Source: Haliotis cracherodii (lineage: Eukaryota). From it: 64,000 nucleotides of DNA. A model generated the notes under the pieces. The model worked only from the letters and a program-made list of their open reading frames with translations, was not told the origin of the DNA and ran no database searches. Positions 44,261 through 59,203 of the stretch are shown in pieces. The DNA lies in assembly GCF_022045235.1 (NCBI RefSeq), contig NW_027266279.1:12152001-12216000 (forward strand). Reading direction: 5' to 3'. Both the position numbers and the translations under genes were made by a program. Position 1 is the stretch's first letter. Every line of letters starts with the position of its first letter.

Positions 44261-44755
44261 AAAATTTTATGGCAGACATGTGGAGGAAATGTGTAAATTT
44301 GACGCATCATGGACAAATAATGATGTCCGATGCAGTTCCTATTTTGACATTTTCCATTGGTTTAAGTAGGGAACATTCATTTTGAGAATGAGGAGTGAAC
44401 AATATTGTAATGCATTATGGAACATACTCAATAGAAATTGTGTTTATACAGTAGCATGTCAAATTTCCATTTCAAGAAAGGGAACTGAAAGTTTAACAAA
44501 GCCAAGGAAAACGACAAATGATTGCAACCATGATAGCACTCACATTGACAATATCAGGTGTTTGTGAAAGTGGACACATAAAAAACTATCAATACTGCAT
44601 GTATTCGCGTAACATCCGGTTCATAAGGTCAAACGTGTAGCTTGTCCACTATAGCATATGTGAATATGAGAGGAATAACATTTCAGAGTAAGTTAGTTAT
44701 TTCCAGATGGATGTTCACATTATTCAGTATTGCTTGGCAACGGTATAAAAATCTA

Positions 44756-45304
44756 AGTAGTTAAGTACTGTGGTATGGAACACCTCAGGATTATGGAACC
44801 ACTCAGGATTATGGAACCGGAAGTGACGTCACATCCTCTGTGACGTCACTTCCGGTCACGTGACCTGCGCAGTGCATGATGGGACTCTGCGCGTGCGCCT
44901 CCAAGATGGCGTCGCTTCCGTTTCCGGTGGCGTGCGCCTCCAAGAGGGCGTGGCTTCCGTGTCCGGTGGCGTGCGCCTCCAAGAGGGGCGTCGCTTCCGT
45001 GTCCGGAGTCGCGCGCCTCCAAGAGGGGCGTCGCTTCCGTGTCCGGAGGCGCGCGCCTCCAAGAGGGGTGGCGCTTCCGTGTCCGGTGGCGCGCGCCTCC
45101 AGGGGGTGGCGGTGGTGGAGGGAGGGAGGGAGGGAGGGAGGGAGGGAGGGTGGTGGTGGTGAAGGGAGGGAGGGAGGGAGGAAAGGAAGGAAAGGAGGAG
45201 GAGACGGGTTCATGGTGTGGGTGGGTGGGTGGGTGGGAGGGTCGTCAAAGCAAAGGAGGAAAGTTGTCTTTCGGGAGAGATGGGTGGCCCTGAAAAGGGC
45301 CGTT
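44756..45304 (+). repeat. Left terminal inverted repeat (549 bp)
   Basis: Reverse complement of 56077-56647; contains TATGGAAC repeats, a 41-bp palindrome, 39-40 bp GC-rich tandem units, (GGGA)n and a histone-type stem-loop. Confidence 0.96.
44816..44856. promoter_or_regulatory. Palindrome of two ETS-CRE composite sites in the left TIR
   Basis: ACCGGAAGTGACGTCACA-TCCTC-TGTGACGTCACTTCCGGT: 18-bp perfect stem, followed by E-box GTCACGTGAC. Confidence 0.75.
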
Positions 45305-45307
45305 TTG
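45264..45307 (-). terminator. Histone-type 3' stem-loop and downstream element (copy 1)
   Basis: Minus strand CAAAAC-GGCCCTTTTCAGGGCC-ACCCA-TCTCTCCCGAAAGACAA; stem-loop 45286-45301, 10 nt after the stop of ORF 45312-45650. Confidence 0.88.
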
Positions 45308-45311
45308 ATAT

Positions 45312-45650
45312 TTACATGCATGTGCACGCCATGGTGCAAAGGCACGGGTGGACTTTCATTTGACGTCTGACAGGACACCTACTGGTGTGCGTTAACCGAC
45401 GCACGTAGGTGTCCTTGAGGATGGTCTTACAGTACACACATTCGAAAGTCCCATCCCGTGCCCTTGTGCCAAGGGCGTACACAGGCAGGCCCCCTTGGCA
45501 TCTGTCGCATTGCCATGCTGGAGACCATGGTGGTGGTGGTGGTGATGCTTCTTTCCACCCGGGCAAAGGTTGTTTCACTGTGGCGATTTCTAAATCCCAG
45601 TTTTCTTTCATGTGGTAGTTGTTGCTGTTGCTGTTGCTGCTGCTCATCAT
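45312..45650 (-). CDS. Small Cys-rich putative zinc-binding protein (112 aa)
   Basis: CDRC...CVYC pair and terminal CLCTMACTC; ATG ~50 nt downstream of the TATAAAA of promoter copy A; stop next to the histone stem-loop. Confidence 0.68.
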   Translation of the reverse strand: MMSSSNSNSNNYHMKENWDLEIATVKQPLPGWKEASPPPPPWSPAWQCDRCQGGLPVYALGTRARDGTFECVYCKTILKDTYVRRLTHTSRCPVRRQMKVHPCLCTMACTCM

Positions 45651-45659
45651 GATGAATCA

Positions 45660-45962
45660 ATTTTACAAGTGACACTGACCCACTCGAATCCACTGTTGTT
45701 TTATAGGAGAGGTACTGACACCCACCCTCCTGGTTGGTTCGCCAGACCGCAGCTCCGATTGGTTCGTTCCGGGGCCTGGTCAGCACCTCGGTTTTCCAAA
45801 ACGGACCGACCCCTGTGTTTCTTTTCCATAGGAAATGGATTTTACCATGGGAGAGAAAGCACAACCCCGGTTCGGCCAATCAGAGCCCCACCTGGTCCGA
45901 GCACCGCTTCTGATTGGTCGACAACCCAGGCTTCGGATTGGTCCCATTTCGATCCGGTTTTT
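45660..45962 (-). promoter_or_regulatory. Repeated multi-CCAAT/TATA promoter module, copy A
   Basis: Homologous to 47332-47630, 52040-52275 and 55030-55300; TATAAAA on the minus strand at 45705-45699. Confidence 0.8.
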
Positions 45963-46503
45963 TCTTCTTGGGTAGCCTTGGTATTTTTTTTTGAGGTAGA
46001 CGGTCGTCTGAATGCTAAAGGAAGGTGGACCTTCATCGGTAGACATGAACGTGGGAATGCCTACGTGATGTACGTGTGTGTCACTCCCATGCCAATCGGA
46101 ATGTCATGTGTGCATGTGTGTGTGTGGGTATGTGTGTATGTCTTCAAACAGACGTTGACGTTGATGTATAGAATAGCGTGTGGTCAGGCAAAACGTAGTG
46201 TCGCGATGTGAACGTCATGTACACGTGGTGTCCTGTGTGTGTGTGTGTGTGTCTTCAAATTAGTATTATTATGATTATTTAAGGATACCGAGGTGTTGAC
46301 ACCCGTGTAAGTCGACAGACGTACTGTGACACGTGTTTTCATGCACACGTGATGTTTGACGTGGTGTACCACGTGTCTCTATTGATCTATTTATATTTAT
46401 ATCTATTTATTTTATTTTTAGACGTGTGCCTCCAAGAGGCCTAGGGGAGGGTGTGGGTTCTTTGTTTTGGATTGTCATTGTTTGGCAAAGCAAAGGTAGA
46501 AAG

Positions 46504-46549
46504 TTGTCTTTTGGGTGAGATGGGTGGCCCTGAAAAGGGCCGTTTTGGG
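46504..46549 (-). terminator. Histone-type 3' stem-loop and downstream element (copy 2)
   Basis: Minus strand CCAAAAC-GGCCCTTTTCAGGGCC-ACCCA-TCTCACCCAAAAGACAA; stem-loop 46526-46541, ~310 nt downstream of the BIR gene stop. Confidence 0.86.
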
Positions 46550-46854
46550 AAAGAAGAAAACTTTTCTGCTGCTGTCCAAGAAGAATGATCATGTCCAAGC
46601 TTATTGACAAGACAAGGATCGTCGAAGGGGTACTTGCTGCCATCTGGGTATGTCATCGGGGTGACCACCGTGACACCACTTGTGGGTCCAACAAAGAAAA
46701 GTTTGTTGGAAACAGGAAGCGGAAACAGATTGAACCATTCACAACAACAACTGTAGACAAACGGGAACTTGAACGGGAACTGGAACGGGAACTTGAACGG
46801 GGAACTGGAACGGGAACTTGAACGGGAACGCAGGACACGAGAAACGTCGTCCTC

Positions 46855-47331
46855 CTAGGCAGCCGGCTCTGCTACGTCATTCGTGTACCTCTGTTTCTCT
46901 TCGCAGAGATAGTGTAGTTGTAGTTGCTTCTGGTGTTTCACCAGCCCGGTTAGCTTGAGGTAATCGCAGTCTGGGGACCACTTGTGATGTGCCGCCCAAG
47001 GATTGTCGTGGGGTGCCCATTGTCTCAGCCGCACACCACATTGGAAACAGCACACACCATCGGCACCCTGAGTGTAGACAAAGCCCGCATGAGCCATCTC
47101 CTCAGCAGTCTGATACATTTGCGTGGGCCACGTCTCAAACGAAGCGAGCCTTCTTTCAAAGCGCAGATAATAGTGCGATGGTGTTTGACTGAGCAGTGAC
47201 ACCGCCTCCTCGGCATGACTCTTACTCCAACATGCACGAGTATCTGTACCCTCCATTCCCACATCTTCGCTACGCGTCGTCGTCGTACCACTCCTCTTTG
47301 TTTCAGCCATTCTTGATTTTATCACATCCAT
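46855..47331 (-). CDS. Single-BIR-domain inhibitor-of-apoptosis-like protein 1 (158 aa)
   Basis: RRLASFETWP...MAHAGFVY...DGVCCFQCGVRLRQW...DNPWAAHHKWSPDCDYL: complete BIR with CxxC...H...C zinc ligands. Confidence 0.93.
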   Translation of the reverse strand: MDVIKSRMAETKRSGTTTTRSEDVGMEGTDTRACWSKSHAEEAVSLLSQTPSHYYLRFERRLASFETWPTQMYQTAEEMAHAGFVYTQGADGVCCFQCGVRLRQWAPHDNPWAAHHKWSPDCDYLKLTGLVKHQKQLQLHYLCEEKQRYTNDVAEPAA

Positions 47332-47630
47332 TTTACAAGTGACACTGACCCATTCGAATCCACTCTTGTTTTATGGGGGAAGAACCGGATCGAAATGGGG
47401 TGCTTCCTGGTTGGTCCAAAACGCAACGCACCGATTGGTTCGTTTCGGGGCCTGGCCTGCACCTCGGTTTTCCAAAACGACCCGACCCCTGTGTTTCTTT
47501 TCCATAGGAAATGGATTTTACCATGGGAGAGAAAGCACAACTCGGGTCGGGTGCTGCCTTCTGATTGGTCGAGGCTGTCTTCTGATTGGTCGACAATCCA
47601 GGCTTCGGATTGGTCCGATTTCGATCCTGT
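47332..47630 (-). promoter_or_regulatory. Promoter module copy B, between the divergent BIR1 and pPolB genes
   Basis: Four ATTGG boxes, CATAAAA at 47375-47369, and the same 5' leader (GTGGATTCGA.TGGGTCAGTGTCACTTGTAAAA) as copy A. Confidence 0.8.
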
Positions 47631-47708
47631 TTTGGGGAAGGGTTGTCCATCCATCAGACGTTCAGACCCTCTTAGAGTACAGGCGTTCATCAGACACACA
47701 TCGTTATC

Positions 47709-50700
47709 ATGACGAGCAACCAAAGTACGCCCTATCGTTTGGAGAGGAAAGATACCACCCGCTCCAGACGGTTAAGAACTGCTAATCATACCTATCGTTT
47801 GACTTTCAACCCAGACTACTTGGACACCGTACCACCGGAACGCGTCCCCCTGGAACTGCCAGCTTTATTTGACAGGGTGATCGATGACTTTTATGAACAG
47901 ATGTCAGGTCAGAAGGGAGATCGTATTGGTCTAGGTATCGATCATCCCGCTTTGAACACCCCCATACGGATTCCCTTTCGACGTTTTGAAGATCTCCATG
48001 GGCCAGATATTTTGCAGGCCGTGGAAAAAGTCCAACAGTCCAACAAAGACCTGAACATCGATGACACCATGGATGTGACTTTAGTACACGTCGCAGATCC
48101 CGACAGGCTAGGATCGGGCAGTGGTGCTCCCCGGGTGAAAAACGTGATTGGACTCGAAGCTTTTTTAACACGCAAAAGGTGCATCGTACGGATCAAGAAC
48201 GAAGATCAATCCTGTTTGGCACGGGCCCTGGTGGTGGCACAGCATTATGCCCACAAACCCCATCCTTTGACCCCAGCATGGAAAGCCCAGTTAGTGAGAC
48301 TGATGAGAACGAATCGCGTCGACGTTCAAGGCCTACGGGCACGGGCCTTGTTTCGACGCCTTGGCCTGCCTGAAGGTCCCTGTCGGGGGCTGGACGACCT
48401 CGCACGCGTGGGACGGGCCTTGACCCACCTGCATTATCAACTGAAAGTCTACAGTCAAGAGGTGGGTCAGAGACTGTTGTACAAGTGTGATGAGGCTCCA
48501 CCTCACGCCACGGTGCTGCATCTATACCATCATGATCAGCACTACGATGTCATCACTTCCATGTCCGCTTTTTACGGGTCTGACCATTACTGCGAACGTT
48601 GCGACAAACGTTACGACCATCCCGAAAAACATCCCTGCACCAAGGAATACCGCTGTCACCGCTGCTTCTACTCTAGCTATTGTGGACCCCAGGAAGAGCT
48701 CGGGATCCCTTGCTTGACATGTCAAGGTTGGTTCCCCAATCCAACGTGTTACACCCGACATCTCCAGTCACCGTCAGAGGGAAAACCCAGCGCCTGTCAA
48801 TCGATTCACAGGTGCCCGAACTGTTTTCAGCTGGTCCGCGTCTTGGAGACCCCCATGGTTCACCACGAGTGCTTCGACGAAGAACATCCCTGCTTGGTGT
48901 GCCGAGAACCCATGACCCCAGACCATCGCTGTTACATGACGCCTCTCCGTGAAGAAAACGAGGAGGGGGAGGAGGGGGAGGAGGGGGAGGGGGAGGGGGG
49001 AGAGGAAACGGAGAAGGAGGGGGAAGAGGAACAACATCACGTACGAGACGACGTCCAATACGTCTTCTACGATTTTGAATGCATGCAAGACACGGGGGAA
49101 CACATTCCAAATTTGTGCGTGGTGCAACTAGGATGTGGACGATGCATCAGTGAAGTGAGCAAGAACTTGTGCGAACACTGCCCATGGAGAGAAGAAGGGT
49201 ATGGTCCCAGCCGTGAGATCGTGTTTCGAGGGCCCACCACGCGACATGATGTGTGTGTGTGGTTGACCACGTTGTGTGAAATACCCAAGAAGAAGAAGCC
49301 CAACCCGGAGGAAGAGGAGGACAGCACACGCAAGGGCACAACAGCCCCCCTGGGGAAAAAAAGAAAACGGGATGGCACCCCCTCAAGAAAGGACGCTACC
49401 AAACGTCAACGGCATGCATCACCCCAGCAGGAGGCGGAGGAGACGGAAGAGGTGGAGGAGGTGGAAGAGGTCATGGAAGTGGAGAAAACAAAGAAGCCAA
49501 AGAACAAGAACACCTCCTGCCATACAGTCCCGAAGGAGGATCGCATTTATGTGATGGCCCACAATGCACGATCCTATGATTTACACTTAATCCTGAAGGG
49601 CCTGTCCCCCCTCCTGGTGACGCTCCCCACCAAGATTCGACATGGCCAACACATTTTGCAGATGACCCTGGGACGGCTGTGTTTCGAAGACAGCTTAAAT
49701 TTCATCCCTTACCCCCTGAAAGCCTTTCCCAAGAGCTTTGGGCTGAAAGAAATGAAGAAAGGGTACTTTCCACACTTTTTCAATACGAGAGTCAACCAGA
49801 CCTACAGAGGTCCCTATCCACCAGCCGTCACGTACGATCCCGATGGCATGTCTCCCGCGGAACGCTCAGCCTTCCTCCAGTGGCATACCCAAAAAGTGCA
49901 AGAAGGAGCCTTGTTCGACTTACAAGAAGAACTTTTAGCTTACTGCCAGAGCGATGTGGACATTTTGAGACGGGGATGCGCCGACTTCCGACAGAACGCC
50001 ATCCACTCGGTGGGCATGGATCCCTTTGTGGAAGTGATGACAGCTGCTGCGTTCACCATGAAATCCTTCCGAAAACACGACCTGAAACCCAATACCATCG
50101 CCATTCTTCCACCTCAAGGCTACCAACCCAAGAGAAACTATTCCCAGGCCTGTATGCACTGGCTCCACTCTCTGATGGAAAGGGACCCCCATCTGCACCT
50201 CCAGCACGCCAGGAATGGCGGTGAAAAAGAGTTCACCTGTGGAGAGGGTCAACATCGGTACAGCGTGGATGGGTACGATCCAGCGACAGGCACCGTCTAC
50301 GAATTCCTGGGCTGTTTCTGGCATGGGTGCAACACCTGTCACAAGACCCGACGTGGAGAACCGCATCCCGTCCTGGGCACGTCGTTGGGAGCCCGTTACA
50401 CCGACACCCACTACCGCTTGAGTCTCTTGAGTCAACACCCTGAGGTGAAACGGGTCGTCGCCCTGTGGGAGCACGAATTTACGAAAATGCAACGGGAGGA
50501 CTCCGCTCTACGTGCTTTCTTGCAGGGACCCCACTGTCGTCACGTCCCCGGGCCACTCAACCCTCGCGACGCCTTCTATGGAGGACGCACCAATGCCACG
50601 CGATTATGCTACGAAGCCCAAGAAGGTGAAACCATCAAGTACATCGATATTTGTTCCCTTTATCCCTACATTTGTAAGACCGGAGCGTTTCCCACGGGAC

Positions 50701-51971
50701 ACCCGACCCTTCTCCATCAACCCCCTGTGGACACGTTGTTTGAACTGAAAGGCCTGATCCAATGCCGTGTCCTACCCCCGAAACGACTCTACCATCCGCT
50801 ACTGCCTTACAGATTGGGCGGCAAACTGCTCTGTCCTTTGTGCCGTACGTGTGCCGATACCCGGTCAGACTCCCCCTGCGAGCACACGGACGAAGAGAGG
50901 TCATGGGTGGGGACGTACGCCACCGTAGAACTCCAGGAAGCCGTGAAGAAGTATGACTACCGGGTGCTTCAGATCTACGACGTTTGGCATTTTGACACCT
51001 TTGCACAGCATGACCCCGACACCCAGCAAGTGGGACTCTTTGACACTTACATCGATCGACATTTCAAGGAGAAGCTCGAAGCCAGCGGATACCCCGAAGG
51101 ATGTACGGATCACGACGCTTACATCCAGGAGATCTACGACAAAGAAGGCATTCGGTTGGACAAGGACCGCATCGAAAAAAATCCAGGACGCCGCACGATT
51201 GCCAAGATGCAACTGAATTCGCTCTGGGGCAAGTTTGGGCAACGGGTAGACTACAGTCAGAACGTCTATATGAACGATCCTGCACAGTACTTTGCCTTGT
51301 GGAGGGATGACCGCAATACCATCGAGGATGTGACCGTTGTCAACGAACACATGGTGGATGTGACCTATACCCAGCGGAAAGAATTCCAAACCCCTCATTC
51401 TCATTTCAATGTCGCCATCGCTGCTTGGGTCACCGCCCAAGCACGTCTCAAGCTGTACGAGACCCTTGCCCTGGTGGGCCGCAGGGTCTTGTACTTTGAC
51501 ACGGACAGCGTCATTTACATTCATCGACCCCACGACGCGAATCCAGAGCTGGGTCATTCGTTGGGTGAGTTTACGGATGAACTGGACGGAAACACCATCA
51601 AGACGTTTGTGTCAGGAGGTCCCAAAAACTATGGCTATGAGTTAATGAACCCCAGACCCGATGGAACGCGCACGACCTGCAAAGTGCGAGGGTTCACTTT
51701 GAATTACCGAAACCAACGCCATCTCAACTTTGACACCATGAAAGGACTGATACTGGGACAACGGTCTGGGAAAGAGGAGGAAGAGAAAATCAGTTTGGAT
51801 TACCCTCATCAGATCATTCGAAAAGGACCTCGGCACGAAAACGCACTCGTGACCCGCCCCACCCGAAAAGACTATCGTACCGTGTACGACAAGCGACGTG
51901 TGGTCTACGACGACACCACAGGCCTACCTGTAGACACGCTACCCTTTGGGTACAGAGACGACTTTCTATAA
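47709..51971 (+). CDS. polB: Protein-primed family B DNA polymerase (Polinton pPolB), 1420 aa
   Basis: ExoI VFYDFEC, ExoII AHNARSYD, ExoIII YCQSDVDIL, FYGGRT, motif A YIDICSLYP, motif B KMQLNSLWGKFGQ, motif C YFDTDS, GPKNY, KVRGF; uninterrupted ORF. Confidence 0.97.
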   Translation: MTSNQSTPYRLERKDTTRSRRLRTANHTYRLTFNPDYLDTVPPERVPLELPALFDRVIDDFYEQMSGQKGDRIGLGIDHPALNTPIRIPFRRFEDLHGPDILQAVEKVQQSNKDLNIDDTMDVTLVHVADPDRLGSGSGAPRVKNVIGLEAFLTRKRCIVRIKNEDQSCLARALVVAQHYAHKPHPLTPAWKAQLVRLMRTNRVDVQGLRARALFRRLGLPEGPCRGLDDLARVGRALTHLHYQLKVYSQEVGQRLLYKCDEAPPHATVLHLYHHDQHYDVITSMSAFYGSDHYCERCDKRYDHPEKHPCTKEYRCHRCFYSSYCGPQEELGIPCLTCQGWFPNPTCYTRHLQSPSEGKPSACQSIHRCPNCFQLVRVLETPMVHHECFDEEHPCLVCREPMTPDHRCYMTPLREENEEGEEGEEGEGEGGEETEKEGEEEQHHVRDDVQYVFYDFECMQDTGEHIPNLCVVQLGCGRCISEVSKNLCEHCPWREEGYGPSREIVFRGPTTRHDVCVWLTTLCEIPKKKKPNPEEEEDSTRKGTTAPLGKKRKRDGTPSRKDATKRQRHASPQQEAEETEEVEEVEEVMEVEKTKKPKNKNTSCHTVPKEDRIYVMAHNARSYDLHLILKGLSPLLVTLPTKIRHGQHILQMTLGRLCFEDSLNFIPYPLKAFPKSFGLKEMKKGYFPHFFNTRVNQTYRGPYPPAVTYDPDGMSPAERSAFLQWHTQKVQEGALFDLQEELLAYCQSDVDILRRGCADFRQNAIHSVGMDPFVEVMTAAAFTMKSFRKHDLKPNTIAILPPQGYQPKRNYSQACMHWLHSLMERDPHLHLQHARNGGEKEFTCGEGQHRYSVDGYDPATGTVYEFLGCFWHGCNTCHKTRRGEPHPVLGTSLGARYTDTHYRLSLLSQHPEVKRVVALWEHEFTKMQREDSALRAFLQGPHCRHVPGPLNPRDAFYGGRTNATRLCYEAQEGETIKYIDICSLYPYICKTGAFPTGHPTLLHQPPVDTLFELKGLIQCRVLPPKRLYHPLLPYRLGGKLLCPLCRTCADTRSDSPCEHTDEERSWVGTYATVELQEAVKKYDYRVLQIYDVWHFDTFAQHDPDTQQVGLFDTYIDRHFKEKLEASGYPEGCTDHDAYIQEIYDKEGIRLDKDRIEKNPGRRTIAKMQLNSLWGKFGQRVDYSQNVYMNDPAQYFALWRDDRNTIEDVTVVNEHMVDVTYTQRKEFQTPHSHFNVAIAAWVTAQARLKLYETLALVGRRVLYFDTDSVIYIHRPHDANPELGHSLGEFTDELDGNTIKTFVSGGPKNYGYELMNPRPDGTRTTCKVRGFTLNYRNQRHLNFDTMKGLILGQRSGKEEEEKISLDYPHQIIRKGPRHENALVTRPTRKDYRTVYDKRRVVYDDTTGLPVDTLPFGYRDDFL

Positions 51972-52039
51972 CTTTTTTTTTTGCATGACAAGGGGATCGA
52001 AACTGAATCGACATGAACCCCTTACAGAAAAAAAAAAAA

Positions 52040-52275
52040 AAAAACGGATCGAAATCGGACCAATCCGAAGCCTGGGTTGTCGACCAATCAGAGACCGTGC
52101 TCGAGCCATGGTGGGCTCTGATTGGTCGAACCGAGGTTGTGCTTTCTCTCTCACGCTACAAGCCTAACCCTATGGAAAAGAAACACAAGGGTCGGTCCAG
52201 TTTGGAAAAATGGAGACTCAGACCAGACACCGGAACGGACCAATCAGAAAGCAGGACCTCCGTGGCTTTTAATAC
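52040..52275 (+). promoter_or_regulatory. Promoter module copy C (most diverged)
   Basis: GGATCGAAATCGGACCAATCCGAAGCCTGGGTTGTCGACCAATCAG... shared with the other copies; TTTTAATA in the TATA position; upstream of the gene at 52481. Confidence 0.75.
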
Positions 52276-52480
52276 GCCCGATGCTCTCCGGTCATCACTT
52301 TTCACTGAACCGACCAAGCAACCACATCGCCCCCCTCTGATTGATGTTCCTCACGTTGTGTTGGTTGTTGGCGTTTTATCTGGAAGAAACACGTGTTTGG
52401 AGAGAGTACCATCAAGTGTTGACGCACCTCCGTGAAGACTTGAAAAGAAACAACAACGAACAGAACATCCGGACAACATC

Positions 52481-53565
52481 ATGTCGAAACGGTTGAATGA
52501 CAAGACACGAAGCGACATGAGTGGCCAAGGAAGCAGTGGAGATGGGAACGGTGACATGACTGCTGAACTGTGGGGTGAAGTGTACGACTTGCTGTGTTTA
52601 AAGATGAAGACCGACGACGCGTACGCCAAGTTACGTGCGAAGGGCGACAACCTGATGTGCGAACAGATACGTTCAAAGATGAGGAAGCTGACTGAACCCG
52701 AGAAAGGCACATCGAAGAAGACGATAAAGAAGATCCAGAAGAAAAAGACAAGCAAGCCCACAGTCGTTGTGATCCCCACAGCAGCAGCAACACCCACCAC
52801 CACCACCACCACATCAGCAACAGCAACAACGGCTGCAGCGACCACAGACATCGAAACGATGGGGACATCCTTTTTGAAACCTGCAACGCCTGCAAAAAGA
52901 CGATCACGGAAGAAATTATCTCTGAAGATCTCTCCTCAAGAACAGCTGTAAGTACCCTTGCTCTTCTTTGTCTCAGTCATTCTTGATGTGATTCATATTC
53001 ATGACCTATTCCTATGATAAATGGACTCTGTCCTATGATTGACAGGACCCCTGATGTCAGTTCAGCCCAGGCCGTGCTAGAACAGTGGTGGGAACAAACC
53101 CCTCGGGAGCCCACCTATTCACCGAATGCCCCTGCTGTGACGATGGCGACGGGTGACCGTGAGGATCATGAAGCGCTCAAGCTGGCCACTCTCCCTTCCA
53201 TGGATCTGGACACGCTCCCCCTGCTTGAGGCTTCTTGGTCACCAACATCCCCGGAAGATGTTCATGTCTACTCCTCAGGTACGCCCCTGGTTTGCGACGA
53301 TAATGAAGATGATGATGATGTGGATGACAACGACGTTGACCTGGATCCTTATGGAGAAGCTCAACTCACTCCCCTACAACGCGGATGTCGTATTTGCCGA
53401 CACAACAACATGTTAAGATACATCAGTTGCAACAGCGGGCAAGTGATGTGTCATACCTGTGGTCTGGAGCTCATAGACTGTACTTGTAGTATGTTGACCT
53501 ATGACCGCATAATGACACATGATGACATGCCTATCACATCTGCTGAGGATCACATCTTATGGTGA
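52481..53565 (+). CDS. Spliced ~328-aa protein with LxCxD, acidic tract and C4 zinc finger (E1A/E7-like layout); exons 52481-52947 and 53046-53565
   Basis: Donor CT|GTAAGT at 52948 and acceptor TTGACAG|G at 53045 join the two ORFs in frame; C-terminal LVCDDNEDDDDVDD...GCRICRH...MCHTC; AATAAA at ~54005. Confidence 0.72.
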
Positions 53566-54303
53566 TCCTCCTCTTCACTCGAAGAACTTGTCAACACGTA
53601 TGCTGCAACCGTGATCAAGTGATGTGTCATGTCTGTTTCAGGGAGACCATAGACTGTACGTGTTGAACGGATGGACCTCTCACAGGGTTGAGGGAGGACC
53701 ACCTCTTATGGGCTTGAAGATGGAAGAGGAAAACGTTGTCGCGTTATTGTTGTTGTTGTAGGGACATGCAAAGCACTCCCTCCTCCATTGACTTTTCGTA
53801 TTTCCGTTGTATCTGGTTGTGATTGGTTTTTTTTCATGATTAAACAGTGATTGATTGAACTGACTCTTTGTGTCTTGATTGATCTCAACTCCAATAGAGT
53901 GCCGAACCGAGGGTAGAGGTTGAGTTGAGATGTCGTTGACGTTGTCTGTCCGTCTGTCTGTCTGTGCATCTGTCATGTCAGTGCACACCCAAGTGTAAAA
54001 TTAAAATAAAAAATAGATAAAAGAGAAAGGCCATGCTTGAAAGATCAGCTGCCTGGTGTCGGTCATTCCAGTACGCATCGATCCCCACACCCCCTCCCCG
54101 TGTACCATGTCATGTCATGGATCGTGTCACGAATCATGCCGTGTGTCCGTCAACCCAAACACAGGATGACGTCACGTGATGAGGTGAAGGAGGTGGAGGA
54201 GGTGGAAGCTAAGGTCATGACCTTCCGTGGAAGGGAGTAGGGTGGAGAGTTTCATAAAAGCAGGCGAACCCTCAGACCTTCTTTCAGTGAAGTCACCGTC
54301 ATC

Positions 54304-54816
54304 ATGGAGCAAAGACGTTCTATGAATGCCATGTCATCCTCCCGAGATGTCGTCACCGATTCCGAGTGGGTGTCTGAAAAGGCGAGAGAACAAGAAGCGA
54401 GAAAACATTCCCTCTTTAGGGACGACACGTGGCGACTCAGTGACATTCTGGAGGGACCTTTTCCTTCTTACACCCTGTGTCATCCTTCTCATCCCCACTA
54501 TGATTCATTTCAAGAACGTCTGAGATCTTTTAAAACGTGGCCTCAACAGATGACCCAGACCCCGTATGACATGGCCATGGCTGGCTATTTCTATCCAGGA
54601 CAAGGTGATTGTGTGACCTGTTATTGCTGCGGTGTGGCACTCCGCCAATGGGAAGCCACAGACCAACCCTGGAAAGAACATCTGAAGCACGCCAAAGTCC
54701 CCTGCGAATACTTGTGTGTGTTTTGTCCTGATGGAGAAGTGAACGAAAAATACAGACGTTTGGTGTCCCAAGAAGCACGGAAGAGAAGAGTCGAGTGTCT
54801 TGTTCACCCCAAGTGA
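54304..54816 (+). CDS. Single-BIR-domain inhibitor-of-apoptosis-like protein 2 (170 aa)
   Basis: ERLRSFKTWP...MAMAGYFY...DCVTCYCCGVALRQWEATDQPWKEHLKHAKVPCEYL; CATAAAA ~50 nt upstream and TGACGTCACGTGA at ~54167. Confidence 0.93.
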   Translation: MEQRRSMNAMSSSRDVVTDSEWVSEKAREQEARKHSLFRDDTWRLSDILEGPFPSYTLCHPSHPHYDSFQERLRSFKTWPQQMTQTPYDMAMAGYFYPGQGDCVTCYCCGVALRQWEATDQPWKEHLKHAKVPCEYLCVFCPDGEVNEKYRRLVSQEARKRRVECLVHPK

Positions 54817-55029
54817 CAACGTTTCTTTTTTCAAAGTGTACAGACGTTCATACCCCCAGTGTTCACAAAAGTCACAGGGACGGTCCCCCCTCATCCTGTG
54901 ACTTTTTGTTTTGTGGTGTTGGTTCATGTGAGCGAGGGGATTAAATTTTTTTTAAAAACTCATAGTGGTGTTCTGTGGTCTGTAGGATGAAGAAAAACAA
55001 AACAGGATCGAAATGCACACCCCGATAAA

Positions 55030-55300
55030 AAAAACCGGATCGAAATTGGACCAATCCGAAGCCTGGGTTGTCGACCAATCAGAGACCGTGCTCGGGTCAT
55101 GCGGGGCTCTGAATGGTCGAACCGGGGTTGTGCTTTCTCTCCCATGGTAAAATCCATTTCCTATGGAAAAGAAACACAGGGGTCGGTCCGTTTTGGAAAA
55201 CCGAGGTGCAGACCAGGCCCCGAAACGAACCAATCGGGGGCGCGGCCTGGGGAACCAATCAGGAGGGTGGGTGTCAGTGACTCTCCTATAAAAACAAAAC
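55030..55300 (+). promoter_or_regulatory. Promoter module copy D
   Basis: CCAAT at 55051, 55075, 55230, 55255 and TATAAAA at 55287; upstream of the zinc-knuckle ORF. Confidence 0.82.
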
Positions 55301-55342
55301 AAGAGCGAAGCCACTCACACACACACACACACACTGCATTCT

Positions 55343-55945
55343 ATGAAACCCATCATGCCAGCTCGATACAGTTGTATGAAGTGCCAGACCGACAGTCACA
55401 GTTACCTGTACTGCCCTGAAGTGACATGCCTCGAGTGTGGCACTCAAGGTCACCGTCACTATGTCTGTCCGAAGATGAACAGTCAAGAGAAGCAGGAGAA
55501 TCGGAACCTGGACCGCTGTTACAACTGTGAAGCCCTGGGTCATTTCGCTGCAGATTGCCCAGAACCCAGTCGAAAGAAGACTCCCCATCGCCTGGACCAC
55601 TGTTACAACTGTCAAGCCCTGGGTCATTTCGCTGCAGATTGCCCAGAACCCAGTCGAAAGAAAACGTCAGCAACACCGTCCACGTCGACACCCGTGGCAC
55701 CCGTGACACCCGTGACACCCGTGACACAAGTGGTTCATCTCATCGAAGACGTGCACGTCGATGTCCTCGACCTAAAAGAATACCTCGCACAACTCCGGGC
55801 GGACATCACACCTCTTGTAGAGAAAAGAAAACGGGTCAGAAGCCTCTCAAGAAAGCACGCTTCAAAGCGCCGACGACACCTTCAGTCCGAGGATGAGATG
55901 GAAGTAGAGGGTGAAGAAGAGAGATCATCTGAACAAAGTGACTAA
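55343..55945 (+). CDS. Four-CCHC zinc-knuckle nucleic-acid-binding protein (200 aa)
   Basis: CMKCQTDSHSYLYC, CLECGTQGHRHYVC, CYNCEALGHFAADC, CYNCQALGHFAADC (all C-x2-C-x4-H-x4-C); basic NLS-like and acidic tail. Confidence 0.88.
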   Translation: MKPIMPARYSCMKCQTDSHSYLYCPEVTCLECGTQGHRHYVCPKMNSQEKQENRNLDRCYNCEALGHFAADCPEPSRKKTPHRLDHCYNCQALGHFAADCPEPSRKKTSATPSTSTPVAPVTPVTPVTQVVHLIEDVHVDVLDLKEYLAQLRADITPLVEKRKRVRSLSRKHASKRRRHLQSEDEMEVEGEEERSSEQSD

Positions 55946-56074
55946 CGCATGGGGCCATGCTACCCCACTGTTTTTTTACCAGTGTCCCATCGTTTGCAGT
56001 TTTTCCAGTGTTCCAGTGTTCCAGTGTTCCTGACGTTTCCTGTCGTTTCCAGTTTCCAGTTTCCAGTTTGTTTT

Positions 56075-56117
56075 CCAACGGCCCTTTTCAGGGCCACCCA
56101 TCTCTCCCGAAAGACAA
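56075..56117 (+). terminator. Histone-type 3' stem-loop and downstream element (copy 3)
   Basis: CCAAC-GGCCCTTTTCAGGGCC-ACCCA-TCTCTCCCGAAAGACAA; stem-loop 56080-56095, ~135 nt after the zinc-knuckle stop. Confidence 0.88.
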
Positions 56118-56647
56118 CTTTCCTCCTTTGCTTTGACGACCCTCCCACCCACACCATGAACCCGTCTCCTCCTCCTTTCCTCCCTCCCTCCCTCCCTCAA
56201 TTCACCACCACCACCCTCCCTCCCTCCCTCCCTCCCTCCCTCCCTCCACCACCGCCACCCCCTGGAGGCGCGCGCCACCGGACACGGAAGCGCCACCCCT
56301 CTTGGAGGCGCGCACCTCCGGACACGGAAGCGACGCCCCTCTTGGAGGCGCGCGCCTCCGGACACGGAAGCGACGCCCCTCTTGGAGGCGCACGCCACCG
56401 GACACGGAAGCCACGCCCTCTTGGAGGCGCACGCCACCGGACACGGAAGCCACGCCCTCTTGGAGGCGCACGCCACCGGAAACGGAAGCGACGCCATCTT
56501 GGAGGCGCACGCGCAGAGTCCCATCATGCACTGCGCAGGTCACGTGACCGGAAGTGACGTCACAGAGGATGTGACGTCACTTCCGGTTCCATAATCCTGA
56601 GTGGTTCCATAATCCTGAGGTGTTCCATACCACAGTACTTAACTACT
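56077..56647 (-). repeat. Right terminal inverted repeat (571 bp)
   Basis: Reverse complement of the left TIR with one extra 39-bp unit and small indels in the (GGGA)/(GGGT) tracts. Confidence 0.96.
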
Positions 56648-56846
56648 AATCTACACCCAAACGTCGCTATTAAATTATAAGAAAGCCGTTGTTATCGGTA
56701 AACGGTATCTACTTTAGATTTGTAAAGACTAAAGGACAGGAGGAAAACGCTAACATGCACTGACCGAGGGGCCTTCTTCAAGTCCGAACGCTTCGGGAGT
56801 CACTGTCGCCTCGTTGATCACCCCCGTCGCCCTGTCCGTGCAGCCC

Positions 56847-57684
56847 CCGCTTGACCAGTCCAGATGCCTGCCTGGTGATCGCTCTACCGCTTGACCAGTC
56901 CAGATGCCTGCCTGGTGATCTCCCTACCGCTTGACCAGTCCAGATGCCTGCCTGGTGATCTCCCTACCGCTTGACCAGTCCAGATGCCTGCCTGGTGATC
57001 TCTCTACCGCTTGACCAGTCCAGATGCCTGCCTGGTGATCTCCCTACCGCTTGACCAGTCCAGATGCCTGCCTGGTGATCTCTCTACCGCTTGACCAGTC
57101 CAGATGCCTGCCTGGTGATCTCCCTACCGCTTGACCAGTCCAGATGCCTGCCTGGTGATCTCTCTACCGCTTGACCAGTCCAGATGCCTGCCTGGTGATC
57201 TCCCTACCGCTTGACCAGTCCAGATGCCTGCCTGGTGATCTCTCTACCGCTTGACCAGTCCAGATGCCTGCCTGGTGATCTCTCTACCGCTTGACCAGTC
57301 CAGATGCCTGCCTGGTGATCTCTCTACCGCTTGACCAGTCCAGATGCCTGCCTGGTGATCTCTCTACCGCTTGACCAGTCCAGATGCCTGCCTGGTGATC
57401 TCCCTACCGCTTGACCAGTCCAGATGCCTGCCTGGCGATCTCTCTACCGCTTGACCAGTCCAGATGCCTGCCTGGCGATCTCCCTACCGCTTGACCAGTC
57501 CAGATGCCTGTCTGGTGATCTCTCTACCGCTTGACCAGTCCAGATGCCTGCCTGGTGATCTCTCTACCGCTTGACCAGTCCAGATGCCTGTCTGGTGATC
57601 TCCCTACCGCTTGACCAGTCCAGATGCCTGCCTGGTGATCTCTCTACCGCTTGACCAGTCCAGATGCCTGCCTGGTGATCTCCC
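56847..57684. repeat. 40-bp minisatellite (CCGCTTGACCAGTCCAGATGCCTGCCTGGTGATCTCYCTA)
   Basis: About 21 almost identical units. Confidence 0.96.
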
Positions 57685-58312: not shown

Positions 58313-58661
58313 CATTCGTGACCAACTCGTGTTATTCCGGGACAAGCCGAATAGCGACTCGTGCTCCTCTCATGGCCATTTTTGCGACCGGGTTCCGTCT
58401 TAGCGCAAACGGGCATACCTAAAACAACTGTCAAGTCGTTGCGTAATGGTTAACATATATTTCCCCACATATTATAAATATTTCAGATGCAATTCTAAGC
58501 ACATATGTAAAATCAAAAATTATTTCTGAGGGATTCTTTGACGAAGAATTTGAAACCATGCGCGCATTCTGATTGGTTTGTCGTATTTTTGCACATAACA
58601 TTCATCGATAGGGGGACTAGTCTTCTTGCAGGTTACGGAAAGAGGCGAGTGGTGACGAATG
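58313..58661 (+). mobile_element. Non-autonomous DNA transposon with 9-bp TSD (internally deleted copy)
   Basis: CATTCGTGACC...GTGACGAATG ends; TSD GGGAGAAAG. Confidence 0.88.
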
Positions 58662-58694
58662 GGGAGAAAGGTGGTGTGAAAGCTCAATTGACAC

Positions 58695-59203
58695 CATCTT
58701 CCCGAGGCAAGTGAGTTAACTGACTAAAAGTCCAGTTTCCACCCTTGTCGAACTGGGCTGGAATTTCTGGGCTCGATCGTAGCGCCACCAAAGACTATTA
58801 CGCGTTATGTCGCTTCGATGCCCCTCCTTTTGACCAATCAGATTCCCCCTCTCATTTCACTTGCATTTGCTTCAAATAAAATGGGGTCGACCAGTGAAGA
58901 CGATGTTATCAAGATCTTGATTGTAGTAAAAAGGGTCTTAGTACGCGAAGTGAGGCACCTTGATTAAAATCATGAAAAGATTTGGAATATATCTGTTGAT
59001 GCAAAGTGGTCCTTACACATGTTTTGCAAATCCTGCAATCCACCGAAAACTGCACGGCAGTTTACGAACCAGATATCGATTTTGATTCTGATTTTACTAT
59101 GCATAGGCTCGTTAGTCCAGCCAAGATATAACTCCATAATTGCAGCCAAGTTCGGCAAGGGTGGACTTTTATAGTCAGCTAACATCCTTGCCTCGGGAAG
59201 ATG
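58695..59203. mobile_element. MITE with TIR CATCTTCCCGAGGCAAG (second copy)
   Basis: CATCTTCCCGAGGCAAG ... CTTGCCTCGGGAAGATG; body homologous to 35501-36049, inverted. Confidence 0.82.

Follow-up and report, generated by a model that had tools for sequence, protein, structure and literature searches.

What sustains an element that has the ends and the polymerase of a Polinton and none of the genes for integration or virions? The question is raised by a 64,000-nucleotide stretch of the black abalone genome (Haliotis cracherodii, GCF_022045235.1, NW_027266279.1, positions 12,152,001 to 12,216,000; hereafter the window). An earlier note, made from the letters of the window, had proposed that the 11.9-kb unit within it is either a helper-dependent satellite or one half of a bipartite element. 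The bipartite branch is favoured over the plain satellite, as a partner exists. The window element, segment A, and a second family, segment B, are separate elements with the same terminal inverted repeats (TIRs). They probably form a bipartite group-1 Polinton, the halves of which likely complement each other in trans.

Segment A (44756-56647, 11,892 bp; Table 1) begins AGTAGTT and finishes AACTACT. The AGTAGT/ACTACT ends and the 6-bp target-site duplication (TSD) AATCTA described in the earlier note were confirmed. So were the near-identical TIRs, in which 528/532 aligned bases match; the indels besides are one 39-bp repeat unit and short ones in the G-rich tract. GC content is ~40% in the flanks and 47-59% in the interior. 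The left TIR, of a type common to segment A, segment B and non-coding elements, is likely both a replication origin and an integrase end. The polymerase gene pPolB is indeed one unbroken frame, and its homologs are Polinton pPolBs. The accessory genes are small, as had been said, and number six candidate open reading frames (ORFs) rather than five: two BIR, one zinc-knuckle, and ORFs of 156, 183 and 112 aa. Clear Pfam support among them is confined to the BIR and zinc-knuckle ORFs.

The absence of integrase (INT), ATPase, protease (PRO) and capsid ORFs from segment A held in every search. With 10 segment-B and 12 canonical-Polinton proteins as tblastn queries, covering integrase, ATPase, protease, penton and capsid, the matches were the two BIR genes and one chance-level stretch of 26 residues (E = 0.08). 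No retroviral-like integrase was detected in segment A alone by tblastn or Pfam. An 80-sequence profile of the major capsid protein (MCP) had no match in its six frames, and a control scored E = 2e-176. No hidden integrase or capsid ORF therefore emerged from the tblastn and MCP profile searches. According to PMC5499653, all Polintons by definition encode both pPolB and integrase; segment A alone fails this definition, being without integrase, ATPase, protease and major and minor capsid genes.

Segment A is a multi-copy family and not a lone deletion. A TIR search of the genome, in which the best 40 of 193 candidates were scored, gave paired matches 8-12 kb apart. A pPolB search gave at least 147 matches, 21 of them in open frames of 1426-1433 aa. 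These and the other protein searches used one assembly and scored the best candidates (137 of 358 for pPolB, 99 of 2050 for INT and 94 of 339 for MCP). Sixteen fetched copies diverge 0.6-3.5% from the window copy, and the undeleted length is ~11-12 kb. The earlier note had suggested looking for copies of the same structure with different TSDs, and these were found: TSDs match in 15/15 A copies scored. A single deletion derivative is ruled out by five sister copies that are colinear at 97-99%, and by further copies likewise.

The same note had named beforehand, as a test, a partner with these TIRs that carries INT, ATPase, PRO and MCP and no PolB. Segment B is such an element. It was found through the capsid protein of P1, a canonical Polinton of this genome, which led to a second capsid family in two "orphan" A-type TIR loci. 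Segment B is 10.2-10.6 kb long. It has no pPolB and encodes an integrase, an ATPase and a protease together with an MCP and a candidate penton. Its TIR is 93-95% identical to that of A across ~530 bp. Eleven copies diverge 0.2-3.2% from the B reference. The five core genes are stop-free in the reference and in 5/9 copies tested, and TSDs match in seven of nine scored.

The integrase matches Pfam rve (E = 8e-12) and Chromo (E = 9e-9), with DDE residues identified by eye, and the ATPase matches Pox_A32 (E = 2e-6). The protease match to Peptidase_C5 is weak (E = 0.037); the protein is 36% identical to the P1 protease, which itself scores E = 1e-6. An AlphaFold model of the MCP predicts a double jelly roll (pLDDT 91), with capsids of Sputnik, PBCV-1 and mavirus as the best Foldseek matches (E = 4.5e-18). 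The penton candidate is 33% identical to the P1 gene of the same slot, one gene upstream of the MCP, where the penton gene lies in Polintons according to PMC4028283. A PF21738 profile matched nothing in the genome nor in any control and is uninformative. Eight B genes are homologous to P1 genes, with conserved order. A and B proteins show no cross-matches in either direction, so the two gene sets do not overlap. Together, A and B have these Polinton/Maverick features: an integrase with DDE residues and chromodomain, a double-jelly-roll capsid, an A32-like ATPase and an adenain protease. The penton is a candidate.

The two gene sets were not found together on one intact element of this assembly. 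A degenerate terminal pattern found 90 ends in the genome, and a control pattern none. Seventy-eight of the ends can be paired. The resulting 39 pairs enclose A in 26 cases, B in seven and non-coding DNA in six, and no pair holds both A and B modules. The full copies of 15-25 kb that would have made the window element a derivative are not among them, the longest same-TIR pair being 11,955 bp. As for the 12 unpaired ends, those fetched are A, B or non-coding remnants and the others adjoin listed pPolB or INT matches. No B-type INT or MCP lies within 20 kb of any of 76 pPolB loci with at least 90% amino-acid identity; this count took in 130/147 pPolB, 67/114 INT and 43/103 MCP matches, second fragments and most matches of other families having been dropped. 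Older loci behave alike: B genes occur in a 10-kb interval at 0/20 older pPolB loci, and nine of ten older B loci have no pPolB within 20 kb. At the remaining locus, which is ambiguous, a fragment of pPolB lies ~4 kb off, beyond a TIR. An unrelated nested insertion accounts for an INT (37% identity) at a distance of 3.9 kb from one A copy on C1. Three TIR elements of 8-9 kb were considered as a third segment and proved to be one B deletion and two gene-free palindromes.

The ends are shared. Two A copies, one B copy and a non-coding element agree at every base of the outer 135 bp of the TIR. In a TIR tree A termini are interspersed with B termini, with four label changes (several old B sequences were misaligned and were not used). 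Variation at TIR positions 8-22 is much more rapid than in the interior of the element, with identical variants turning up repeatedly on A, B and non-coding copies. This pattern suggests repeated exchange or selection at the origin.

Gene-free elements with the A/B TIR and their own TSDs, 8.7-9.9 kb long, lie at C14:15722908-15731876, C6:36132476-36141174, C7:14789655-14799356 and C9:377243-387161. TSDs match in 6/6 non-coding copies scored. Because elements without genes bear TSDs, an integrase must act on the A/B TIR in trans. In the two gene-free elements checked, the halves are inverted copies at 99.3-99.9%, and the padding consists of tandem repeats. They resemble snap-back defective genomes, for which replication and insertion would be wholly in trans.

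The genome holds two complementary multi-copy families with intact genes, shared TIRs and their own 6-bp TSDs, along with the trans-mobilised gene-free elements. Decayed copies, described below, tie pPolB to the B genes. As A carries the polymerase without integrase or capsid genes and B those genes without a polymerase, between the same ends and beside decayed unsplit copies, the two likely cooperate as halves of a two-segment DNA virus. A would then depend in trans on B functions. We propose that the protein-primed polymerase of A copies both segments, and that the B integrase inserts both while the ATPase, protease and capsid proteins of B package both. From what is known of Polintons, A and B would be excised as linear molecules and replicated from the shared TIR, with a terminal protein as primer. 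Re-integration would fall to the B integrase, and capsids encoded by B would package the segments, perhaps singly. Host apoptosis may be restrained by the BIR genes of A.

The unsplit state is preserved in decayed form. At five decayed loci pPolB lies immediately upstream of B genes and in the same orientation (INT in four, MCP pieces in three), and one of these loci is flanked on both sides by inner-TIR remnants. Five further decayed loci are A-like but have an ATPase just before BIR2, at the exact place of the ATPase-flank vestiges in modern A. In pPolB and INT trees rooted with P1, the unsplit copies branch first, and the A-lineage (UFBoot 97) and the B-lineage (82) form derived ladders down to present copies; low-coverage sequences were left out, namely four A-like fossils in the pPolB tree and three sequences in the INT tree. 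The unsplit copies are old, with pPolB 15-19% from modern A and INT 9-11% from modern B, and the age ladders of A and B are continuous to <1% divergence. In protein trees the P1 group is the sister of A-pPolB and likewise of B-MCP. Canonical P1 is ruled out as the direct parent, with a pPolB at 41-56% amino-acid identity and a TIR that matches only in AGTAGT. Small decayed chimeras, in which TIR remnants, BIR2, ATPase and a penton piece mix A-like and B parts, occur at two loci.

The simplest order of events, going by the trees and vestiges, would start with an unsplit ancestor. This would have given rise to an A-like derivative that kept pPolB and, temporarily, the ATPase, and then to a B derivative minus pPolB. 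The unsplit form would subsequently have died out, and A would later have shed its redundant ATPase.

Both segments appear to have been maintained by selection. Shared-variant pN/pS is 0.27 for pPolB, 0.20 for INT, 0.18 for penton, 0.24 for MCP and 0.19 for PRO, and the B genes including the ATPase span 0.18-0.29. BIR2 is at 0.15. The zinc-knuckle gene, at 1.36, gives no purifying signal, and the small ORFs have too few variants for a verdict. Across the pooled B core, shared variants have a lower pN/pS than singletons (Fisher p = 4e-5), and for pPolB both classes are well below site proportions. These patterns point to purifying selection on A and B alike.

Several observations weigh against a bipartite element. 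For pPolB, shared and singleton variants do not differ significantly in pN/pS (Fisher p = 0.20). Root and ingroup support in the P1-rooted trees is moderate (89 and 69), so individual "unsplit" loci could be recombinants or fusions of A and B. As one assembly was searched and the best candidates were scored, an active unsplit copy could exist in other individuals; a complete, intact single-molecule form is absent from the 39 terminus pairs and 76 pPolB loci of this assembly. In Haliotis asinina a B-like MCP at 74% has 18 members, and the closest pPolBs listed are at 47-60%, with no A-type above 60%. Finally, complete Polintons of other families are present (P1, the high-copy P2 and at least two more), and P1 and P2, having AGTAGT ends, could supply integrase or capsid.

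The likeliest rival accepts the genome organisation proposed here and differs only on particles. It holds that A and B cooperate purely by transposition within germline cells and that the B capsid genes are kept by inertia, with no particle stage. Polinton virions were indeed unobserved as of PMC10748475. Yet the shared variants of MCP and penton are depleted of amino-acid changes (16 nonsynonymous vs 22 synonymous; p = 3e-6 against site proportions). Moreover, most A, B and gene-free elements are 8-12 kb in size, the gene-free ones padded with tandem repeats, as under a packaging size window. The size clustering is only a hint, and overall we regard a split without particles as unlikely. Against the bipartite organisation itself, the chief alternatives are help from outside Polinton families and an unsplit virus that survives elsewhere.

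It is more doubtful still that A and B are independent non-autonomous satellites which share a TIR by chance and rely chiefly on complete Polintons from other families such as P1 and P2. Potential helpers with INT, MCP, ATPase and pPolB are at hand, P2 in hundreds of candidate copies and both P1 and P2 beginning AGTAGT. Butterfly Polintons lacking polB are reported to have amplified beside complete relatives (bioRxiv 10.1101/2025.02.07.637071). The termini of the other families differ from those of A past these 6 bp, however, whereas A and B share ~530 bp and the same terminal variants. Their genes also derive from one unsplit lineage, and purifying selection on the INT and capsid genes of B and on the pPolB of A would fit each supplying what the other lacks.

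Least probable of all is that an unsplit autonomous member of the family survives, in other individuals or as an exogenous virus, and that A and B are defective genomes of two kinds dependent on it: unsplit copies did exist in the past and only the best candidates of one assembly were scored, but those found are all old, none of the 39 paired termini encloses a young one while the A and B ladders reach <1%, and a deep contig from a second organism shows the split configuration.

That contig, nearly identical in sequence, has a B-type promoter joined to the start of the ATPase. B sequence was seen both in the second organism and in a further sample of the organism of the window. H. rufescens has relatives of both the B-like MCP and the A-type pPolB, at 89-90%. 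A metagenome scan gave six loci, among them one 72% MCP relative on a 2-kb contig that is too short to show its organisation. Contigs from a presumed RNA run cover the pPolB region of A and not the B genes, which is no evidence either way.

Group-1 Polintons/Mavericks (beta adintoviruses, such as P1) have the features of A and B combined: AGTAGT ends, TIRs, a 6-bp TSD, pPolB, rve-chromo integrase, A32-type ATPase, adenain protease, double-jelly-roll capsid, a BIR gene and a penton, for which B has a candidate. The gene order of P1 is that of B. They are single elements, whereas here the gene set is divided over two separately inserting elements with a common TIR, and no intact member has both pPolB and INT. 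We found no report of a bipartite Polinton in a literature search that lay outside subscription journals, supplements and Repbase. The nearest precedent appears to be the polB-lacking Polintons of the butterfly Pieris mannii (bioRxiv 10.1101/2025.02.07.637071), which like B are amplified and carry integrase and capsid genes without a polymerase. There, highly similar complete Polintons coexist and the accessible part of the report describes no reciprocal polymerase-only family; in the abalone each half is a family of its own, and of the complete form only decayed copies remain.

Bidnaviruses, as described for Bombyx mori bidensovirus (PMC4061559), share with A and B two linear segments, matching termini and a Polinton-derived pPolB on one of them. 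Their segments are packaged in separate capsids, as A and B may be. They also differ in having single-stranded DNA, a parvovirus-type capsid and no integrase, and their second segment is thought to come from gene replacement rather than from division of one Polinton set (PMC4061559). The predicted double-jelly-roll capsid places A and B outside the Bidnaviridae. By analogy, the pair may nevertheless work like a bidnavirus-type bipartite replicon. Densovirus replication is of the rolling-hairpin type, and the maize mitochondrial plasmids S1 and S2 have identical TIRs, with the DNA polymerase on one plasmid. The segmented densovirus of Acheta domesticus (PMC10267136) belongs to a normally monopartite kind of DNA virus and has its replication cassette on one segment and its capsid cassette on another, as in A and B, but is a single-stranded DNA parvovirus that does not integrate. 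Maize S1 and S2 (PMC3152571) are likewise paired protein-bound linear DNAs with TIRs, but are organellar plasmids with no integrase or capsid.

A split family could easily escape notice. The Polinton survey method of PMC10748475 keeps only pPolB loci with linked core genes and would thus throw such a family out as fragments. As of 2016, the recognised animal multipartite viruses were the single-stranded DNA bidensoviruses and one RNA virus (PMC5094692). The origin of multipartite genomes is an open question, and intermediates are seldom preserved; theory predicts that complementing cheats give rise to multipartitism where gene products work in trans (PMC10159356). Since both segments integrate, the unsplit, intermediate, split and gene-free forms are all preserved in this genome, as copies of graded age. 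The order of gene loss, terminal co-evolution and the segment ratio (26 A : 7 B : 6 non-coding, by paired termini) can be measured in it. A particle stage of Polintons also gains indirect support from purifying selection on a capsid segment that encodes no polymerase.

A fuller reading, which we put forward tentatively as a serious possibility rather than a probability, is a multipartite double-stranded DNA virus of the double-jelly-roll lineage. It would be an animal polintovirus with separately packaged, obligately complementing replication and virion/integration halves. Its unsplit ancestor, ATPase-bearing A intermediate and gene-free "full cheats" would be kept as graded-age copies in one genome. 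If true, this would be a natural archive of how multipartitism emerges from defective genomes that complement each other.

Table 1. Features of segment A and its borders, in positions of the window.
Feature	Position	Strand	Evidence
Left TSD AATCTA (6 bp)	44750..44755	+	
Left TIR, 549 bp: AGTAGT terminus, 39/40-bp GC-rich repeats, G-rich tract	44756..45304	+	
112-aa ORF, no family, weakly supported; region differs among A subtypes	45312..45650	-	
CCAAT-rich promoter-like repeat copy	45699..45963	-	
BIR (IAP-type) protein 1, 158 aa	46855..47331	-	Pfam BIR, E = 1e-22
Promoter-like repeat between BIR1 and pPolB	47326..47633		
pPolB, single unbroken 1420-aa frame	47709..51971	+	Pfam DNA_pol_B_2 (PF03175), E = 3.6e-35
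Promoter-like repeat	52032..52245	+	
156-aa ORF, basic, Thr-rich, without confident family	52481..52951	+	
183-aa acidic ORF, paired CxxC at C-terminus ("oncoid"-like layout)	53014..53565	+	
ATPase-locus vestiges, three short stretches (54005-54065, 54137-54194, 54245-54317)	54005..54317	+	79-89% to flanks and start of B ATPase
BIR (IAP-type) protein 2, 170 aa	54304..54816	+	Pfam BIR, E = 2e-20
Vestige resembling stretch downstream of B protease gene	54836..55010	+	83%
Promoter-like repeat with TATA-like end	55029..55293	+	
Zinc-knuckle (CCHC) protein, 200 aa	55343..55945	+	Pfam zf-CCHC, E = 1.5e-12
Right TIR, 571 bp	56077..56647	-	
Right TSD AATCTA (6 bp)	56648..56653	+	

The nearest database proteins bear Haliotis (abalone) names, at 98-100% identity. 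The pPolB has the cysteine and histidine expected for the vOTU domain of PMC11161782, and this domain is assigned by analogy with that work. It likely also carries a VSR insert, as in the mollusc Polintons of PMC10748475. The CCAAT-rich promoter-like element occurs in four copies in A, with one related copy in B. An Rb-binding motif in the 183-aa ORF was considered and rejected as not conserved, LxCxD being recent and older copies having MVC. The cysteine-rich end of this ORF (53428-53487) is duplicated just downstream, at 53604-53663. A 40-bp tandem array starts 200 bp to the right of segment A and is followed by a very high-copy interspersed repeat (56847-57500 and 58313-59200).

Among the other Polintons of the genome, P1 is a canonical group-1 element of 16.5 kb at C4:10.27-10.29 Mb that carries PC4 and BIR. 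P2 is a high-copy complete group-2 element of ~14.5 kb with AGTAGTATAGG ends. Its abundant ATPase family (at least 444 candidates) was ruled out as the partner of A, as P2 has its own pPolB and INT and a different TIR. Tandem partial arrays of P2 lie at C67:50.68 Mb and C1:88.43 Mb. Besides P2 there are at least three further unsplit families, namely P1 and two whose MCPs are distant. A 4.9-kb element at C1:41.919-41.924 Mb is inserted in an A copy; it has inverted arms of 900 bp, carries an integrase and an ATPase-like ORF, and is possibly another reduced Polinton-derived family. Similar integrases (frames of 393-396 aa, 37-38% to the B INT) occur at several other loci.

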